Origin: Sphyrna mokarran
Taxonomy: Eukaryota
Direction of reading: 5' to 3'
DNA length: 64,000 nt
NCBI GenBank assembly: GCA_024679065.1
Contig: JAGIQG010000009.1
Location: 59,644,001-59,708,000, forward strand
Under the pieces are notes generated by a model. It saw only the letters and a list, made by a program, of their open reading frames with translations. It was not told the DNA's origin and searched no databases. Positions 745-10,078 of the stretch are shown piece by piece (positions within the stretch are counted from its first letter, which is position 1; each line of letters begins with the position of its first letter). A program made the translations under genes and the position numbers.

Positions 745-798
745 CATCCACTCCAGCTGCCTCAGTATTCAATGCTGATAACTGCCAGTTTCCAGATG
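745..798 (+). mobile_element. Penelope-like element RT remnant (left part of the ERV target element)
   Basis: Encodes AASVFNADNCQFPD, matching AAIVSVLNADNCQFPDA in the PLE RT of ORF 46209..46520. Confidence 0.75.
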
Positions 799-902
799 TA
801 TGTCCTGACAGCACCTCCATCGACGTAAAAGAAAATAAAGCTGTACCATTGTTAAACTTGACAATGAATCTGTAGTGGTCATTTCACCCACTTACGCTAA
901 CA
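797..902 (+). repeat. 5' LTR remnant (R/U5 only)
   Basis: 106-nt ungapped match to 8845-8950 with 12 mismatches; AATAAA at 834-839; ends ...GCTAACA. Confidence 0.9.
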
Positions 903-904
903 AC

Positions 905-922
905 TGGGGATTCGTCCTGGAT
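905..922 (+). promoter_or_regulatory. Primer-binding site, tRNA-Pro type
   Basis: TGGGGATTCGTCCTGGAT, 2 nt after the LTR's terminal CA; 15/18 match to the canonical Pro PBS TGGGGGCTCGTCCGGGAT. Confidence 0.85.
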
Positions 923-2717
923 CACAACCATCGTTGGAACGACGTCTCCTGGCAGTGGGTGAATATCTTTACTCATTTCATCAAATCCACGGAATACTAG
1001 TGTCCCAATGTTACAGCAGTATTTCACGGCTGCTGCAATCTGACCTTGTGAACAGGGTCCATTCAATAGCTGTTCAGCAGTAACGTGGGTTTAAGTTTCT
1101 TTTTGGGCAGGCGACTGAAATTGTGAACTGTAATTCATTGTGTTATTTTTACATTCTGCTGACTCCCGACAAGCCCGACCACAGATTCATCGCCCACTAG
1201 GGGGCCCGACAGAACAGGTGTTAACAAGTACAGGGCAGGGACACTGCCCTGGGATTCAAGGTTAAGGTATAAGGCAGGGACAGCACCGTGGGAATTAAGG
1301 TTAATGAGGACGTCCAAGGTTTCAGGGCCAATGAGATTGGGCTCTTGAAGTTCGGCACAAGTCCAGGTGCTGCAAGTCGGTAAGGACCTCTGCAGGCGCA
1401 AACGATCAGGCCACTGGGGGGCAAAATTTGTGAGAAGTTTACTACATACCTAGGCGCTACTAAGTCTGGAGCCTCTGAGTGCCTCGACCACTACAAGCAG
1501 GAGACCTCTGGTAGTGCAATAAAACAACTACACATCGGGGGACTCTGACTCGCGGTCGATTACATGCCAGTCCGCACCCAGGTCCACATAACTCCCAAGG
1601 GAATGGGAAATGGCTGCCTTCTGAGAGTCGATTTAGCGATAGGAGTTTGGGGAGGAGCTAGTGTCCCCAGTCACTGTAGTCGGTAGTCTTTCCATACACT
1701 GCCGCCCCTGTGGAGGCTGTACAGAGCTCACTTGCCTCTGAGAGCGACGATCTCCCCGCTACTTGCAGGCCGGGCCCTGCAAGTTGCCACTGAAGGTACA
1801 AATGTATTAACAGTGGGAACATGAGACCATAACCCAATCAGAGATACAAACAAGTATCTGTGAAAGCATTAGAGCTAGGGTTGGTACACTATTGACCCTA
1901 GGAAGGGAAGCTAACATGGATAGCAACTTTTGAATGGGGACCAGAAGGATCCCTCACCCTCTGTCTAGCAGACAAAAACAAGAATCTAATTAAAAGCATG
2001 ATGAAGGCAGGGTGGAAGCCTCACTGAAACACAGTGGGAGTATGGGCAAAGGAGAAAAGGAGCAAGGATGACAAGGCGTGGATCTTAATATTAAAGGCTC
2101 ATGTCATCCTTGCAGGATGAGTTCATAAGTATGTACAAGGCAAGCAGGAGCAAACTGCACAGCGACAACATGCTGCTATGATGGCCGCTAACCCTGTGCT
2201 GCCAGTACTGTCTGACTTTTCACGCGAACCTCCGGGTGAGGGGTGTCCCGACTAGCAACGTTTAGTAGATAAACAGGTCCACTATGCCCGACAGGGGGAG
2301 CATTCCATCTACCACCGACCTCTCATCCCAGAGCGTTATGACAGCCCCTGTTAAAATTGAGTGTGTCCCCCGGGGGGAAAGCGGAAGACAGGTGAGGGCA
2401 ATCTGCCCAGGCTTGGATAAAGATGACCTATGTATCCCTTACTCCGGGGGACACAATGAAACTGCTGGACAAACTCCCAACCCTCCAGCCCAGACACAGT
2501 AAAGCGATCTTCTGGTAAAAACTTAAGCAGATGCAACTATGTCACAACCTACACAATCGGGATATAGCAGAGCTGATAAGAGCCAAAACGCTGGAAAATT
2601 ATTGGACCTGGCTTCAGATAGAACACCGGAACAGGACCTGGGGCATGAACCTGAACGAGAGTTGCCAAGAGCAAGATCAAGCTCTGGCAGATTTTAATGA
2701 TGATATTACCCAAACCA

Positions 2718-3189
2718 TAGGTTCACTAGGCTGATAGCGGAGATGAGGGCGTTGGATTATGAGGAGAGACTAAATAGGCTAGGTTTGTACTCTTCGGAGT
2801 TTAGAAGGCTGAGAGGGGTTCTTGTAGAGATGTATAAGATAATGAAGGGGATGGATAGGGTAGAGGTTGAGACACTCTTCCCGCTTAACAATGATAGCAG
2901 AACTAGAGGGCACAGCCTCAAGATTAGGGTGGGGGGGGGGGTTCAGATCAGAGTTGAGGAGGAACTTCTTCACGCAAAGAGTGGTGAATCTTTGATGGCT
3001 TCTTCACTGAATATATTCAAGTCAAGAGTGGGATAGGTTTGATTGACAAGGGAATTAAGGGTTACGGGGAGAAAGCAGGAAAGTGGTACTGAACCACTGC
3101 AGATCAGCCAATGATCTTATTGAATAACAGGGCAGGCTCGGAGGTGTTGGATGGCCTACCTGTGCTCCTATTTCTTATGTTCTTATGTT
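2718..3189 (+). mobile_element. 5'-truncated CR1 LINE inserted into gag
   Basis: ORF 2743..3036 (LDYEERLNRLGLYSSEFRRLRG) is the CR1 ORF2 C-terminus; (TTCTTATG)n-type tail; flanked by CAAACCA at 2711-2717 and 3190-3196 (TSD). Confidence 0.92.
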
Positions 3190-3807
3190 CAAACCAGGAG
3201 GTGAGCACCCGTGAACTAGAACGCAATCGTAGAGGTAGTGCAGGGGAAGAAGGAAGGAGCCCAGGAATACGGGTGATGGAAATCTGATGCCTTTTTGGCC
3301 CATGGGGGAATGCCCGATGCCGATAGACAGAACCCCGCATTCCTCCAGCTACATAAGGACAGGCTGAGCCCAACGCACCAAGCAATCCTAAAAACCGGGT
3401 TGGTAAACTTCAATACCTTTGACGAATTAGAGAACTGGGCTATTACCTTTGACAACCAACAGAGAAAGATCCAAAAATGCCAGGGCAGGGGTATCTTCCC
3501 TAGGAACTGATGGAGTGGGCTTCTACAGATGTGGGAAACCTGATCATTATAAAAAGGACTGCTGAGTCCAAGCACTCCAACCTCCCAAATATGCCGCAAT
3601 TACAGCAAGATTGGACACAATGAGTCAGTTTGCCATAGCAAGAAGTTCCCAAGGGGAGAGAAAGAGAGAAAGAGAGAGAGAGCCCCCCGACACGACCAAA
3701 CCCTGGCAAGCCCCTGACTTAAAGGGGAACGAAGTCATCTCCGATACTGCACACCTCAGCCACCAGAATCTGCTAGATATTATACAGACTCTGACAACAC
3801 AAAAGAC

Positions 3808-4220
3808 GTGATATAGAGATGCCGGCATTGGACTTGGCTAAACACAATAAGAAGTCTGACAACACCAGGTTTAAATCCAACCGATTTATTTGATAGTAAA
3901 CTCACAAGCTTTCGACCCTCTGACTTTGTTCAGGTGAATGAGGTGTTCTAGTCTCAAACAGCACACATAACAGCATAGACTGTTTACAGATTACTGATTA
4001 GAATGCTAATCTTTACACCTAACCTTACTTGTATAGCAGGTTAGGTGTAAAGATTCGCATTCTAATCAGTAATCTGTAAACAGTCTGTGCTGTTATGTGT
4101 GCTGTTTGAGACCAGAACACCTCATTTACCTGACGAAGACTAGAGGGTCAAAAGCTTGTGAGTTTACAATCAAATAAATCAGTTGAATTTAAATCTGGTG
4201 TTGTCAGACTTCTTACTGTG
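3808..4220. mobile_element. Penelope-derived fold-back mini-element (inverted pseudo-LTR pair + tail)
   Basis: Inverted arms at about 3843-4025 and 4038-4220; PLE tail at 3808-3842; TSD CACAAAAGAC at 3798-3807 and 4223-4232; arms homologous to PLE ends at 11740-11910. Confidence 0.9.
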
Positions 4221-4235
4221 AGCACAAAAGACCAC

Positions 4236-6160
4236 ATGAATTGCGTCGACCCCCACTTGGGAGCCGACCCCCGCATCTGGGTTAACGCATCATTAGGGGG
4301 CCAGCGATGCAAAATATTAATAGATACGGGGGCTGCAATAGCTCTCACCAAACATGGCACTTCCTACAAGTTGCATCGTAGTAGTGGGGATAGGGGGAAA
4401 TAGAACTACAGCTTATCACAGTGAGGCAGTCCTACTTGAGATCGAGGACATTTTACTCCCAGTACACTTCTGGATATGCCCGAACCAGGAGGGAACGATT
4501 TTGGGGATGGACCTCCTGTGAACTGCGAGGAAGGAACACAAAAGTGGGATTCAGGGATACTGGGTCCCCAATAAAAATGTGGCTGCAGTTCGGGCAGGAG
4601 ACCACACATATACAGCCCGAGATTGGAAAAGGGAGAGAACAGTAGGGCTTCTATGCCAGTCGTTACCCTGAGTCTGGGCAGCAGGGAAACAAGACTGTGG
4701 CCTCATAAGAATCTCTCCCCTATACATACATGGGCCGATCCACACCCCCCACAAACAATACCCTATAAAGCCCGAAGCACTGCAAGCCACTGAGAAAATC
4801 GTTCAGGCTTTGGTCGCCCAGAGTATCTTCAGATCCACAGTGTCCAACACCAACTCCCTGATAAGACCAGTCCATAAGCCAGATGGAAGTTACCAAATGA
4901 CCATAGATTACACTGCCCTAAACAAAATAACACCAAAAGAACACCCCATAGTTGTGAGTCCATCCACTATTTTCAACGGATTCTGACCTGAACATTGTAC
5001 TTTCTTCATGTTAGACATAGCAAACAGATTCTGGTCCATCCCACTTCACAAGGACTCCCAGGAAAGGTTTGCTTATACCTGTGGAGGGAAACAATACACA
5101 TGGACACGCCTCCCCCAAGTGTTCCACAACAGCTGCAACATTTTCCACCCAGTTATGAGTGAGGCCCTTGAGGACTGCAATCTGTCCCCATATGGAAGTA
5201 TCTTCCTTCAATATGCGGACGACATCTTTACCGCCTCCACTAACCTCACGGGACAAATAGGAGCCCTGTCCACAATCCTATGTGCTTTGCAGGCTGTGGG
5301 GTTTAAAATCAACCCAACTAAGGCACAGATTGCACAACCTGAAGTCCGGAATTTAGGACACAACATAAGCCAAGGAAAGAAAGCCCTCCCCTCTGATTGG
5401 AAGATCTCGATTGCAAATACGCCCTGTCCAAACACAGTCAAAGAGGTGCATAGAGTTATGGGACTCTTAAACTACTACCAGAATTTCATTGACCAGCTCG
5501 CATCTCTGGCCAAACCAATTCAGCTGCCGGTCAAAGGGGGAAAGCCAGGAGCAGAAACGATCGAGTGAGGACCCGAACAAAAGGCAGCACACACCCATCT
5601 TAAATCAGAATTATTAGCAGCCCCAGCCCTACGCATGCCTAACATAACTAAACCTTTCCACCTCTTCTATCACTCAGAAGAGGGATTTTATAGCTCCGTG
5701 GCAACCCGAAAATACAGGGGCATATTATTCTACCCGACAGTCACCGGTAGCTAAGGACTGCACAAATGTGGATGCTTCTAGATTGCGTTGCCTGAGCAGT
5801 CAGGGTATGCGAACCAATCACTATGTCAGGACAAATCATTTTACATGCACGTCGAGCTCCTGAATGCAGGTCGGCTCCGGACTGTTTTGGACATCTGAAG
5901 GGCCAACTGGGAAGCGGTACTCCTCCTCCAAGACTGGATAGTCCAGATACTGCGGGACACTGGAAGAACCCGACAGATTTTTATCAGAGGGAAGTCCGTA
6001 CACTGCTGCCCGATTAACCCAGACACTGAAGTGGAGGAAGGGATTAATGACCAACCCCTAGATAACCCTGACCTCACACTATATGTAGACGGGTCCTGAA
6101 GACAAGTAGAGGGACAATACCGTACAGGCTGGGCAGTGGTAGACCATGAGGGGACATACC
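4236..6160 (+). pseudogene. pol: ERV pro-pol: aspartic protease, RT, tether and start of RNase H; integrase absent
   Basis: Protease KILIDTGAA (about 4310-4340). RT motifs KPDGSYQMTIDYTALN, LDIANRFWSIPL, YTWTRLPQ and QYADDI (ORF 5008..5568). Tether APALRMPNITKPFHL. RNase H LYVDGS*...GWAVV (6061-6159), then an abrupt jump to env-like sequence. Confidence 0.9.
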
Positions 6161-6164
6161 ACTC

Positions 6165-8166
6165 ACCAACAATCCCATGGGATAATATTCAATACATCTG
6201 AGGCGTTGTGCATGCCAGCCGCAGCATACCGCGAGAATAATAGAATGTATTCAAATGCATGGCTACAAGTCCACCCGGGTATCAACGTGATTTGCTTCAC
6301 TTGCATATTGGATAAGCTTTGAACATGCATCCAATGGTCAGACTTGCTGAGTGACTCTGGCTGTACCTTCGGAACTATGTGCACCCTTCCCAAAAATCCG
6401 CAAACACCACCACAAAGAGACATTTTGAAATCGGACATTGACATTTGTGGATATTACGGACTAGTTGAGGCTCCTGCAGTCTCACCATACGTATGTTTTG
6501 CACTTCCTGCAACGTGTGCCCCCATGACCAAGACACCCAAAATCTTACCCTGCCCCTTGCTGAGTGTGGGCCGGAAGGAGGAGTGGTGCTGTGGAATAAG
6601 GGAGAAACTGTATACGACCACATGAAATACGAAATCGTCCTGTTCTGATCGATATCTCAGGGATCCAGGTGCCAGGATACTGTTCAGAACAGACACAAAG
6701 TATGTAGCAAACACTAGGCAGAGAAACTGTAAAGTGGGCTATCGATGCGATGGGAGCAACACACTATAGAGGCAACACATACACACACAGAAGCAAAAGG
6801 AGTATAGTCAATGACATCGTCACAGGAATAAACACCGGATCCAGCATGGTTAACTCGATTGACATCCAGGCCTCAATAATAAGATAGAACAGTTAAAGGG
6901 TGTAATGAAAGAATCCTACAACAGTCACTAGGTCAACAAGCTGAGCAGGCTCTTTAGGGGACAGGGGCACTCATACCCAACTAGATGGAATCACAATATT
7001 AGAAACACATGCCCGTACCACTAACTGCCTCAAAGACAGAGAGAGAGAGAAAACACTGCCCAGTACAACAGGGACAGCTGTGCCATGCGTATGGTCAATG
7101 GATGATAGGCCAATTGAGACATTATTTGGACCAGGTACACAGTGGGGAGATGCCCAATTGGATTGACAGCACCCAGTTAGCACAACACGCACATCAGAAT
7201 AACCGGACCTTGAAGGGATGATGTGGGTGTATCCAGTGATCCCCAACTGCGAGGTTAGTGAGAACATGGGGATAGGGATGGTCCTATTAATCCCGATAGT
7301 GACACCAGACTCGGGACCATTCCCTATTTTCCAACTTGAGAACAGTGTTGTTAGAGGCAATACCTCCCTCTGCTACCACCTAACTGAAGTCACAGTCATC
7401 TCAAGACATGGCGTGATGTTCAGTACCTCCCTCTCGGGATGCAAAGGGGAGAAATAACCATTTGCCCTCACCCACTAAGACAAGGAGAGGCAGCTGAATG
7501 TGGGTTTGATCAAACACAGGACTGTACCCTAGAAATTACAGCTACAGACCCACACTTCTCCCGGGCAGGATATGGAGGACGAGGCAGGTATTGTGTAGCC
7601 ACAACAGAAACATCCTTTGTATACAACGGGCTGACATGCCCGATCCCCAGCCCAAACTTCTGCTTCACCCTTGGCAGACCGGTCACTATTGGTCAAGTCC
7701 ACATCATCAACATCTGAAGTAGGCAGGCCCTGACACTTAATGCCACCGAGCCATAAAAAGATGACCTTAAATATTACCAAGAGCCAGAACAGGTTCCCAT
7801 CCCACAGCCAGCAGAAGTACTGAGAGAGCTCCTTCTCAAGGTGGGACACTCTGTTCAGTTATACCACCAGTTACTAACCCATGTTAAAACCCTGGAGCAT
7901 GATACAGAATCAGCCTTACAGAGCCAGACATGGGTACAGAAGGTATGGGACTGGGGCCTAATTGTAGACATCACCCCTGGATCCGGATAATCTCTCACAT
8001 ATTGGTTGCTATCCAACTGAAACTGGCAATATCCTGGGGAGTAATAACTTGCCATACCTACCACCAATGCAAGAAAACTAAAACTAGGAGGCAACTAATT
8101 AGAATGATTGGCAACATGGGACAATTAACAAATCAGGAAGACTTCTCCCGCGTACGCCTAATTTGA
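6165..8166 (+). pseudogene. env: ERV env of F-protein type (paramyxovirus F / foamy TM-like class I fusogen)
   Basis: Furin site RSKR at 6789-6800, then SIVNDIVTGINTGSSMVNSIDIQA and a heptad repeat. Cys block LSGCKG..ITICPHP..ECGF..DCTLEI..GRYCVA..TCPIP. Second helix, Trp-rich TWVQKVWDW, TM HPWIRIISHILVAIQL, stop at 8164-8166. About 455 codons follow the cleavage site. Confidence 0.75.
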
Positions 8167-8295
8167 CAAACCCGGGGCTCCCCTAATCTATATGACTGCA
8201 GCGTGCAAATGCAGGATGCACCGGACATAAAATCTGCTAAAGAAATCGGTCTGAAGGAGACGGAACAAGTCTGCTCCCAGCCAACAGGCGGGTAC

Positions 8296-8950
8296 TGTTA
8301 TCGGACAACAAATTTTATGAAATTGGACACATAATATGGAAGCAGACTAAAATCACACTCAGAGCCTTCCACTAAAAATCACCAAGAAACAGACACAGGC
8401 TAGCAGGCAACAGCATGCTTTTAGAATGCAAATGAGGGCTAATATACAGTGGAAGCTGGTCAGGATGCCACCTCCAAGAGTGAAATTAAAAAACACATCC
8501 CCACCCCACCAAATCAGCACTTCTAAATCAGTCAAACAACCTATGGAGACACCTAAAGATTAGCTTACCTAAGGAAGCATCCTTGGCCTCTCAAACTTCC
8601 TGAGAATAGTTGCACACCTATTGTTAAAGCCCTGGAGATTCCACACCATTAATAACCAATCAGACAAAATGATTAACATATACTTAAAACAATCGTCCCA
8701 ATACTTGAAAACATCGAGACAGAATGGCTAAAGTCGAATACTGTAAATAAAGCATTAGCATTTGAATTGCATACTACACTGAAGTTCAGGTATAATTGTA
8801 GCCCGTTGTGGCAGGTCTTTAGAGTGCTTTCGGGACAGTCCGATTGTATGTCCTGACTGCACCTCCATCGACATAAAAGAAAATAAAGTTGTACCATTGT
8901 TGAACTTGACCCCGAGTCCGTAGTGGTCGTTTCGCCCACTTGCGCTAACA
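8296..8950 (+). repeat. 3' LTR (655 bp)
   Basis: Starts TGTTATCG after a degenerate purine tract and ends CGCTAACA (7/8 terminal inverted repeat). TATAA near 8792, AATAAA at 8882-8887. Its last 106 nt match the 5' LTR remnant. Confidence 0.85.
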
Positions 8951-10078
8951 ATATGTTAAAGAAGCCATCCCCTATGGACAAGCCCTCTGTATACATAGGA
9001 TCACAACACCCACCTCCAGACATTGAACGATGCCCTTATAAGAACAGAATACAGCACTCGAACTATCAATAGTTCGAACTCGCCACAGCAAAAAACAGCA
9101 TCGACTTCCAAAGACAAACACTTGACACGATGGACAGAGTACCCTTTGTCATCCAGTACTTCCCTGGAATCAAGAAGCTACAACATCTTCTCCAGAATAT
9201 TCAAAATGTCATTGATGAAGACGAACATCTCGCCATGGCCATCCCTACACCCCTACTTCTTGCCTTCAAACAACCTCACAATCTCAAATAGACCATAGTC
9301 CGCAGCAAACTACCCAGCCTTCAGGAGAACAGTGACCGCAACACCACACAACCCCGCCACAGCAACCTCTGCAAGACATGCCAGATCATCAATATGGATG
9401 CCATCCTCTCACGTAAGAACATCATCCACCAGTTACATGGCATATGCTCTTGCGTATGTTGTCTACCTAATACACTGCAGAAAAGGATGCTCCAAATCAT
9501 GGTACAGTGGGGAGACCATGCAATTGTTATGACAATGGATGAATGAACACCACTCGACAATCACCAGGCAAGACTGTTCCCTATCTGTTGATGAACACTT
9601 TGGTGGTCATGTGCATTCGGCCTCTGATCTTCGGTAAACGTTCTCCAAGACAGCCTTGATGACAAACAACAGCACAGAGTCGCTGAGCAGAAACTGATAG
9701 CCAAGTTCCGCACACGAGGATAGCCTCAACTGGGATCTTGGGTTCATGTCACACTATCTGTAACCTCCATGACTTGCCTGAACTTGCAACATCTCACTTA
9801 CTGTCCTACATGGAGACAATACACATCTCCTTAACCCATGCTTAATGCTACCTGCACTCACATTGTCGGCACCTTTAAGATCTGAATAGCAGATTATCTG
9901 TAAAGACTCGCATTCTGATCAGTATTCTGTAAACTGCGTGCACCTTTATATGCCCTGTTTCTGATCAGAACTCTCCACTCACCTGACGAAGGAACAACTT
10001 TCCAAAAGCTTGTGACATTTACTATCATATAACTGTTGGACTTTAACCGGGTGTTGTGAGACTTCTTACTGTGTTCAA
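8951..10078 (+). mobile_element. Penelope-like element 3' half (RT thumb, GIY-YIG endonuclease, pseudo-LTR with hammerhead motif)
   Basis: VKEAIPYGQAL, VVYLIHCRKGC and WYSGET (GIY-YIG-type); degenerate CTGACGA..CAAAAGCTTGTG near 9983-10014; homologous to 44710-47080. Confidence 0.88.

Follow-up and report, generated by a model that had tools for sequence, protein, structure and literature searches.

A decayed Sphyrna mokarran provirus with a predicted F-type envelope protein homologous to those of lokiretroviruses, foamy viruses, snakehead retrovirus and a walleye retrovirus

The provirus and its envelope gene

The window, by which we mean the whole stretch of 64,000 nucleotides that was analysed (G000:C1548:59644001-59708000), lies within the 2.77-Gb assembly of Sphyrna mokarran, and a decayed provirus was found near its beginning. 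The following features were recognised.

797..8950, + strand: decayed provirus with the layout LTR-gag-pro-pol-env-LTR
797..903, + strand: 5' LTR remnant (3' end only, 107 nt), 88.8% identical to 8845-8951
905..922, + strand: primer-binding site of tRNA-Pro type, 3 mismatches
1890..3810, + strand: decayed gag, start approximate (zf-CCHC E 0.0015)
3808..4220, no strand: host repeat with inverted arms, inserted between gag and pro and not in sister copies
4233..4515, + strand: protease remnant, DTG at 4323 (RVP E 0.086)
4750..5570, + strand: reverse transcriptase, LPQV at 5110 and YADD at 5212 (Pfam RVT_1 E 5.6e-24; 74% identity to P0001)
5570..6152, + strand: tether/connection domain and start of RNase H, YVDGS at 6082
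6152..6156, no strand: deletion junction; the window copy lacks the remainder of RNase H as well as the integrase and the env signal peptide
6156..6800, + strand: env surface part, about 215 codons, frameshifted; Cys-rich N-terminal segment, F2-like strand at about 6571-6640, furin site RSKR at 6789-6800
6801..8166, + strand: env fusion subunit, predicted F-type, interrupted by 7 or more frame changes and by several stops
8296..8950, + strand: 3' LTR (TG...CA), about 655 nt, 80-89% identical to the 5' LTRs of sister copies L027, L033, L156 and L157

Neither the upstream part of the window nor the 10 kb adjoining it yielded a further match to the 5' LTR, and LTR dating was rejected, given a 5' LTR of only 107 nt and an unreadable target-site duplication. 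Beside the remnant, positions 330-796 are a unique stretch, unmatched both in the remainder of the window and in the fetched loci, and a 92-codon open frame runs from 597 to 875. The gag region is broken by a repeat insertion at about 2720-3190, and the repeat inserted at 3808..4220 has seven other matches within the window. Downstream of the provirus (9000-64000) neither strand has an open frame that reaches 200 codons, and the part of this region examined for repeats holds LINE-like remnants.

The original prediction, made from the window sequence, had listed two CCHC knuckles, a DTG protease, a Pro primer site and about 130 nt between env and LTR. The protease motif and the primer site are present and the gap measures 129 nt from the env stop to the 3' LTR. 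Two zinc knuckles are indeed present, at about 3521 and 3592, but each is short of one ligand in the window copy; the first is perfect in all three distinct sister copies with a match, and of the second one sister copy has a complete version and others a degenerate one. The primer site, which we take to be that of tRNA-Pro, is matched with at most 3 mismatches by a site in 16 of 40 reference records, all 16 of them gamma/delta-sized (8.1-9.0 kb), and the foamy, snakehead retrovirus (SnRV), walleye epsilonretrovirus (WDSV) and lokiretrovirus (Loki) records contain no match. At the deletion site, sister copies L031, L032 and L037 have 1.3-2.9 kb that include sequence of RNase H and integrase, and sister copies also keep the env signal peptide.

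In env, the distance from the RSKR site to the TGA at 8164-8166 is 1366 nt (455 codons, nominal), and the CX6CC motif, present in 7 of 7 gamma/delta controls, is absent from every forward frame of the window env; cleavage site, length to the stop and lack of CX6CC had all been read correctly. The order of segments that had been proposed holds for its elements, since the fusion peptide, the GMVLLIPIV..FQLEN segment, the Cys block, the Trp-rich stretch, the TM and an upstream strand (GGVVLWNKGE..YEIV) are all there, but not for a single reading frame: the gene consists of 11 collinear pieces on a frame-open sister copy, with 7 frame changes after the furin site plus in-frame stops. The length is borne out by frame-open relatives, in which the fusion subunit has about 457-464 residues. 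What had been described as a short F2-like piece before the cleavage is actually a part of about 215 residues, in which a Cys-rich segment of about 135 residues precedes the F2-like strand, and this strand aligns with the Loki, WDSV and SnRV Envs. The locus is a dead provirus, predicted to yield no virus and no Env.

Placement of the reverse transcriptase

The window RT was compared with SnRV (L105), foamy, gamma, delta and WDSV records and with three lokiretroviruses (L149-L151); the L105 RT is identical to the SnRV RT printed in the supplement of PMC7947760. A careful IQ-TREE analysis was made with 46 of 63 rows, 17 having been dropped as redundant or short, and without ERV-L, fish foamy-like references or a Gypsy/Odin outgroup. 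The window grouped with P0001, P0003 (whose cluster includes a Mustelus asterias protein) and a Heterodontus protein at 100/98, and then with cyprinid ERVs at 95/88; the nearest named relatives, for both RT and Env, come from Mustelus, Heterodontus and Chiloscyllium, which makes a shark host likely. A probe with a Scyliorhinus ERV RT reached 57% at best. Lokiretroviruses and foamy viruses formed separate clades, each at 100/100, and SnRV stood near the window element with an unsupported join.

The original prediction had seen in this element a chondrichthyan lokiretrovirus that could extend the range of that group. According to PMC7947760, three chondrichthyan genomes were screened and no lokiretrovirus was found, so there is a gap to be filled, and lokiretroviruses resemble the window element in an F-type Env with RXKR, a dual RNase H and a simple genome. 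The Loki Env is also the best-scoring reference for the shark Env profile described below, and the element has the tether and RNase H and no accessory genes. A tether and a second RNase H, which we found in the window (its start) and in sister copies, are common to all retroviruses and are therefore not diagnostic of Loki. The RT motifs, however, are not of Loki type. The window carries HPIVVSPS and TRLPQVFHNS (the retroviral LPQ type), whereas the Loki RTs printed in the PMC7947760 supplement carry PLS[RH]W and PFG..NSP, and the fetched L149-L151 carry these Loki motifs too. In the RT tree Loki sits on a long stem with full support, and forcing the window's clade together with Loki was rejected by the AU test (p=0.013). 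A 33-nt Loki RT pattern had no exact match in the genome, a weak result given that it covers exact matches only, and it had no match in viral contigs. The fetched Loki Gag is without CCHC, the Loki Envs stand apart and are cut at about 113-115 against about 230-290 in the window's Env class (SU about 115 versus about 235), and no smc-like region of the lokiretrovirus kind was seen in the window. We therefore give membership in this group hardly any credence: because the Loki RT motifs are absent, the RT and Env trees are separate and the AU test rejects the grouping, the element is not a lokiretrovirus, and the extension of the Loki range falls with it.

A basal foamy-like (clade Tu) shark ERV, in which the accessory genes were lost or never present, would agree with the AU test, which allowed the window clade as sister to the foamy viruses (p=0.43), with the best PDB sequence hits of the RT, which are foamy Pol (E 1.5e-36, vs 1e-33 for MLV), and with the foamy TM as top Foldseek hit of the Env models. 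It is nevertheless quite unlikely, as the Gag here has CCHC and the foamy Gag checked has none, the primer site is of Pro type and env lies 129 nt from the LTR where foamy viruses have a Lys/Asn primer and accessory ORFs, and the SU is short. The foamy viruses moreover form their own 100/100 clade, and the fish foamy-like RTs in the PMC7947760 supplement are, by eye, without the HPIVASP segment. That the element is not a foamy virus proper, as had been argued from its layout, is thus supported.

The element is instead likely to belong to clade Huo, a class III, snakehead-retrovirus-related group. The turtle elements ch_my_ERV12 and ch_pi_ERV20 and the whale shark element rh_ty_ERV4 are among the clade Huo ERVs of Xu et al. 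2018 (PMC6001957). By a hand count in the supplement of that paper, 51 of 72 RT residues of ch_my_ERV12 are alike in P0001, and rh_ty_ERV4 has the same RT motifs as the window; both stand in a tip block labelled clade Huo, an assignment taken from the tip order in a PDF-extracted figure. Because such closely similar turtle and whale shark RTs are listed there, the Pol lineage is, as judged from its RT sequence, already catalogued, also from a shark, and is not new. The possibility raised at the outset, that the family is already known in sharks, thus applies to the RT lineage (whale shark and turtles) but not to the family of copies, which differs; the supplement rows of PMC6001957 list Pol proteins only and assign no Env class. 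Close known systems are SnRV and the elephant-shark CmiERV lineage I (PMC4422223). SnRV shares with the window element a CCHC Gag, an RT with 40% identity to P0001 and a homologous fusion subunit, but has a much longer SU, with an open frame of about 620 residues ahead of the final furin site, and differs also by a 3' ORF and by its primer site.

Homology and relatives of the envelope protein

A 109-residue piece of the window env found at least 132 matches among 150 scored candidates in the genome, a count into which related families and split hits also enter; among the other matches, the best 20 have 71-86% identity. Two related env families were recognised, B with many copies and one open frame and C with a single intact gene, and the window family, B and C have in common a fusion subunit of 457-464 residues without CX6CC. 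The open family B env (L021:1505-3622, - strand; G000:C557:55778004-55780121) has a frame of 706 codons with about 31% identity to the window's family and adjoins a broken pol from another RT clade. A word-index homolog search with this intact Env gave 0 of 7592 candidates. Among the sister copies, L027, L033 and L039 keep both LTRs, the leader and env and are without most of gag-pol, possibly as a non-autonomous env-carrying subfamily.

A scan of 1.84 billion representatives with a query profile of 45 rows, including 2 Loki and 1 WDSV, found 152 proteins; among the 150 listed, 82 were nearest to Loki, 66 to the shark families and 2 to WDSV. From these a deep profile of 53 rows was assembled (3 genome copies and 50 shark-type database hits) that holds no Loki, WDSV, SnRV or foamy rows, with the mild circularity that its members were gathered using a profile containing 2 Loki rows and 1 WDSV row. 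In hhalign this profile matched the Loki Env at E 1.4e-14 over 385 columns, the WDSV Env at 5.5e-11 over 339, the SnRV Env at 1.8e-10 over 280 and the foamy TM at 3.4e-6 over 220. The foamy alignment is collinear across the beta-rich and Cys regions, and the SnRV alignment covers the pre-furin strand. Gamma and delta Envs reached 0.018 and 0.012 over short TM stretches only, and reversed targets 0.05 or worse; the match to gamma-type TM that would have told against the prediction of an F-type, non-gamma Env is accordingly confined to such a stretch. A profile from the genome copies alone scored the Loki Env at 18 bits, with the highest-scoring shuffled or reversed control at 5.6, and in hhalign gave 1.1e-6 for Loki and 1.7e-5 for SnRV. 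With a profile of the window's own family alone nothing was significant against any reference (Loki E 0.075), and the link to the other Envs therefore runs through the related families. These comparisons give good support to a window Env of F-type, homologous at the level of sequence profiles to the lokiretrovirus, foamy, snakehead and walleye Envs.

The connection to the F proteins themselves is made by way of the Loki Envs used, which match Pfam F0 (PF00523) at E 1.2e-5 and 2.2e-3. The bridging between foamy Env and paramyxovirus F that had been proposed is upheld in this sense, that one Env profile detects both the Loki Env and the foamy TM. Pfam and PDB sequence searches with the Env fragments, the intact relatives and the profiles gave no significant F or foamy hit and no direct PF00523 hit; one of the 45 profile members matched Baculo_F at E 0.0011, and an HMM match to Langya virus F was collinear and non-significant (E 0.26). 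The Loki, foamy, SnRV and WDSV Envs did not match one another in pairwise tests, which used shallow profiles. The WDSV (L148:5962-9648) and SnRV (L105:6131-9532) Envs belong to no Pfam family, yet are collinear with the shark Env profile. Because of this collinear match both are likely, by sequence, to be F-type as well; for WDSV, which unlike the window has a class I RT, the homology takes in the pre-furin strand, the Cys block and what lies between.

Two AlphaFold models came out with low confidence (mean pLDDT 41.7 and 53.3), and their input alignments contained SnRV rows in one and Loki and WDSV rows in the other. The top 9 and top 10 Foldseek ranks of the two models were all foamy TM or pneumo/paramyxovirus F, with a best E of 0.0064, none at 0.001 and TM-scores of at most 0.2, and VIA-align returned helical matches only. 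The models suggest, and do not prove, an F-type fold for the window's Env class.

In a quick Env tree on the profile alignment, which gave long-branch warnings, all 10 of 10 Loki-type Envs fell into one clade (SH-aLRT 100) with the cut at about 113-115, and the window's family grouped with Mustelus, Chiloscyllium and Heterodontus proteins. Other named relatives come from a sawshark, frogs, the coelacanth and cyprinids, and the ESM Atlas added a single chordate cluster (0.82), which is no more than a lead. Several relatives are annotated as uncharacterised (P0150, P0184, P0207, P0078, P0097, P0135 and P0173, from Mantella, Bombina, Pelodytes, Xenopus, coelacanth and cyprinids). One cyprinid cluster has 444 members, and the 16 near-identical members from Mantella suggest a recent expansion there.

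Env swaps between retroviral classes are well known, and a class III retrovirus with a recently captured lokiretrovirus env would explain why the Loki Env has the top score. The window Env, however, is not nested inside the Loki Envs, and the same Env class occurs beside a pol from another clade (at L021), in SnRV and WDSV, and in frogs, coelacanth and cyprinids. Because the class is found beside different pols and across taxa, an old shared origin of this Env fits better than one recent capture, and we regard the recombinant as unlikely.

The single-copy env C (L022:5397-7769, + strand; G000:C2:82839896-82842268) is intact over 790 codons from stop to stop, and a search of about 12-15 kb to each side of it turned up neither a pol nor an LTR pair. 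It is present in sequencing runs of at least six organisms; no RNA run is among those listed, which has no bearing on its expression. In four runs, from four other organisms, the indels among those listed fall outside the ORF. In one run, over 1050 nt, the 40 changes listed out of 42 comprise 36 synonymous and 4 non-synonymous ones (pN/pS about 0.03-0.05; binomial p 2e-19). Chiloscyllium punctatum has a full-length counterpart with 86% identity, annotated as hypothetical. Because env C is intact and under purifying selection, it is likely, on this sequence evidence, a co-opted F-type env of sharks, and is a candidate domesticated fusogen or restriction factor. A domesticated env of this broad class may already have been described, since a co-opted foamy ERV is known from geckos (PMC6669660).

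Proposed entry mechanism and origin of the F-type envelope

Taking these results together, we are fairly confident that what remains at this locus is the dead provirus of a retrovirus related to snakehead retrovirus (likely Huo, class III), with a predicted F-type class I Env homologous to those of lokiretroviruses, foamy viruses, snakehead retrovirus and the walleye virus. In the ancestral virus the signal peptide would have directed Env into the secretory pathway, and furin would have cut it at RSKR. The strand before the cut may have stayed in the fusion core, like F2 in paramyxovirus F and the SU strand in foamy Env. The Cys-rich N-terminal segment, judged by its position only, was likely the receptor binder, because the genome is without a separate attachment gene. 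HR1 and HR2 would then have refolded into a six-helix bundle and driven membrane fusion. Reverse transcription was likely primed by tRNA-Pro, and after germ-line integration the copy would have decayed. Furin maturation, the core strand and HR1/HR2 refolding are modelled here on F and foamy Env, and the layout, cleavage motif, domain order and homology come from the present analysis.

Foamy Env and paramyxo/pneumovirus F (PMC11468914) would share this predicted fusion core with the window Env. As regards its envelope, the element would function in the manner of lokiretroviruses and foamy viruses. Foamy Env differs in its long leader, its large receptor-binding domain and its cut at about 570, and paramyxoviruses differ in having a separate attachment protein. 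The pre-furin length is about 115 residues in Loki, about 235-290 in the window's Env class and about 470-620 in WDSV, foamy viruses and SnRV, and this gradient suggests how receptor-binding domains came to be added to an F core.

Three earlier works deal with Envs of these groups. Wang & Han (PMC7947760) report no overall similarity of the Loki Env to other retroviral Envs and leave four scenarios for its origin; PMC11468914 places orthoretrovirus Env in a fusogen subclass separate from F; and a 2023 review (PMC9967133) treats the WDSV-type Env as a distinct, more recent development and makes no link to F. In full-text searches of the literature we found no report of an F-type Env in clade Huo, SnRV or WDSV, and none of a co-opted F-type env in sharks.

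The shark Envs provide a sequence bridge across the Loki, foamy, SnRV and WDSV Envs. A broader reading, to which we would give even chances, is that Huo ERVs, SnRV and walleye epsilonretroviruses share a so far unrecognised, vertebrate-wide F-type Env family, that the F-type, together with Loki and foamy Env, represents the ancestral retroviral Env with the gamma and beta types as later replacements, and that one member was domesticated in sharks. The bridge favours those scenarios in which an F-type Env was already present in the retrovirus-Loki ancestor and makes them testable by trees and structures. Because these relatives tie together four Env types, the question of the ancestral retroviral Env becomes directly testable. 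The bridge would also account for the epsilonretrovirus Env, which has had no classification until now, and, if true, would mean that the F-type fusion machine is older and more widespread in retroviruses than has been assumed.
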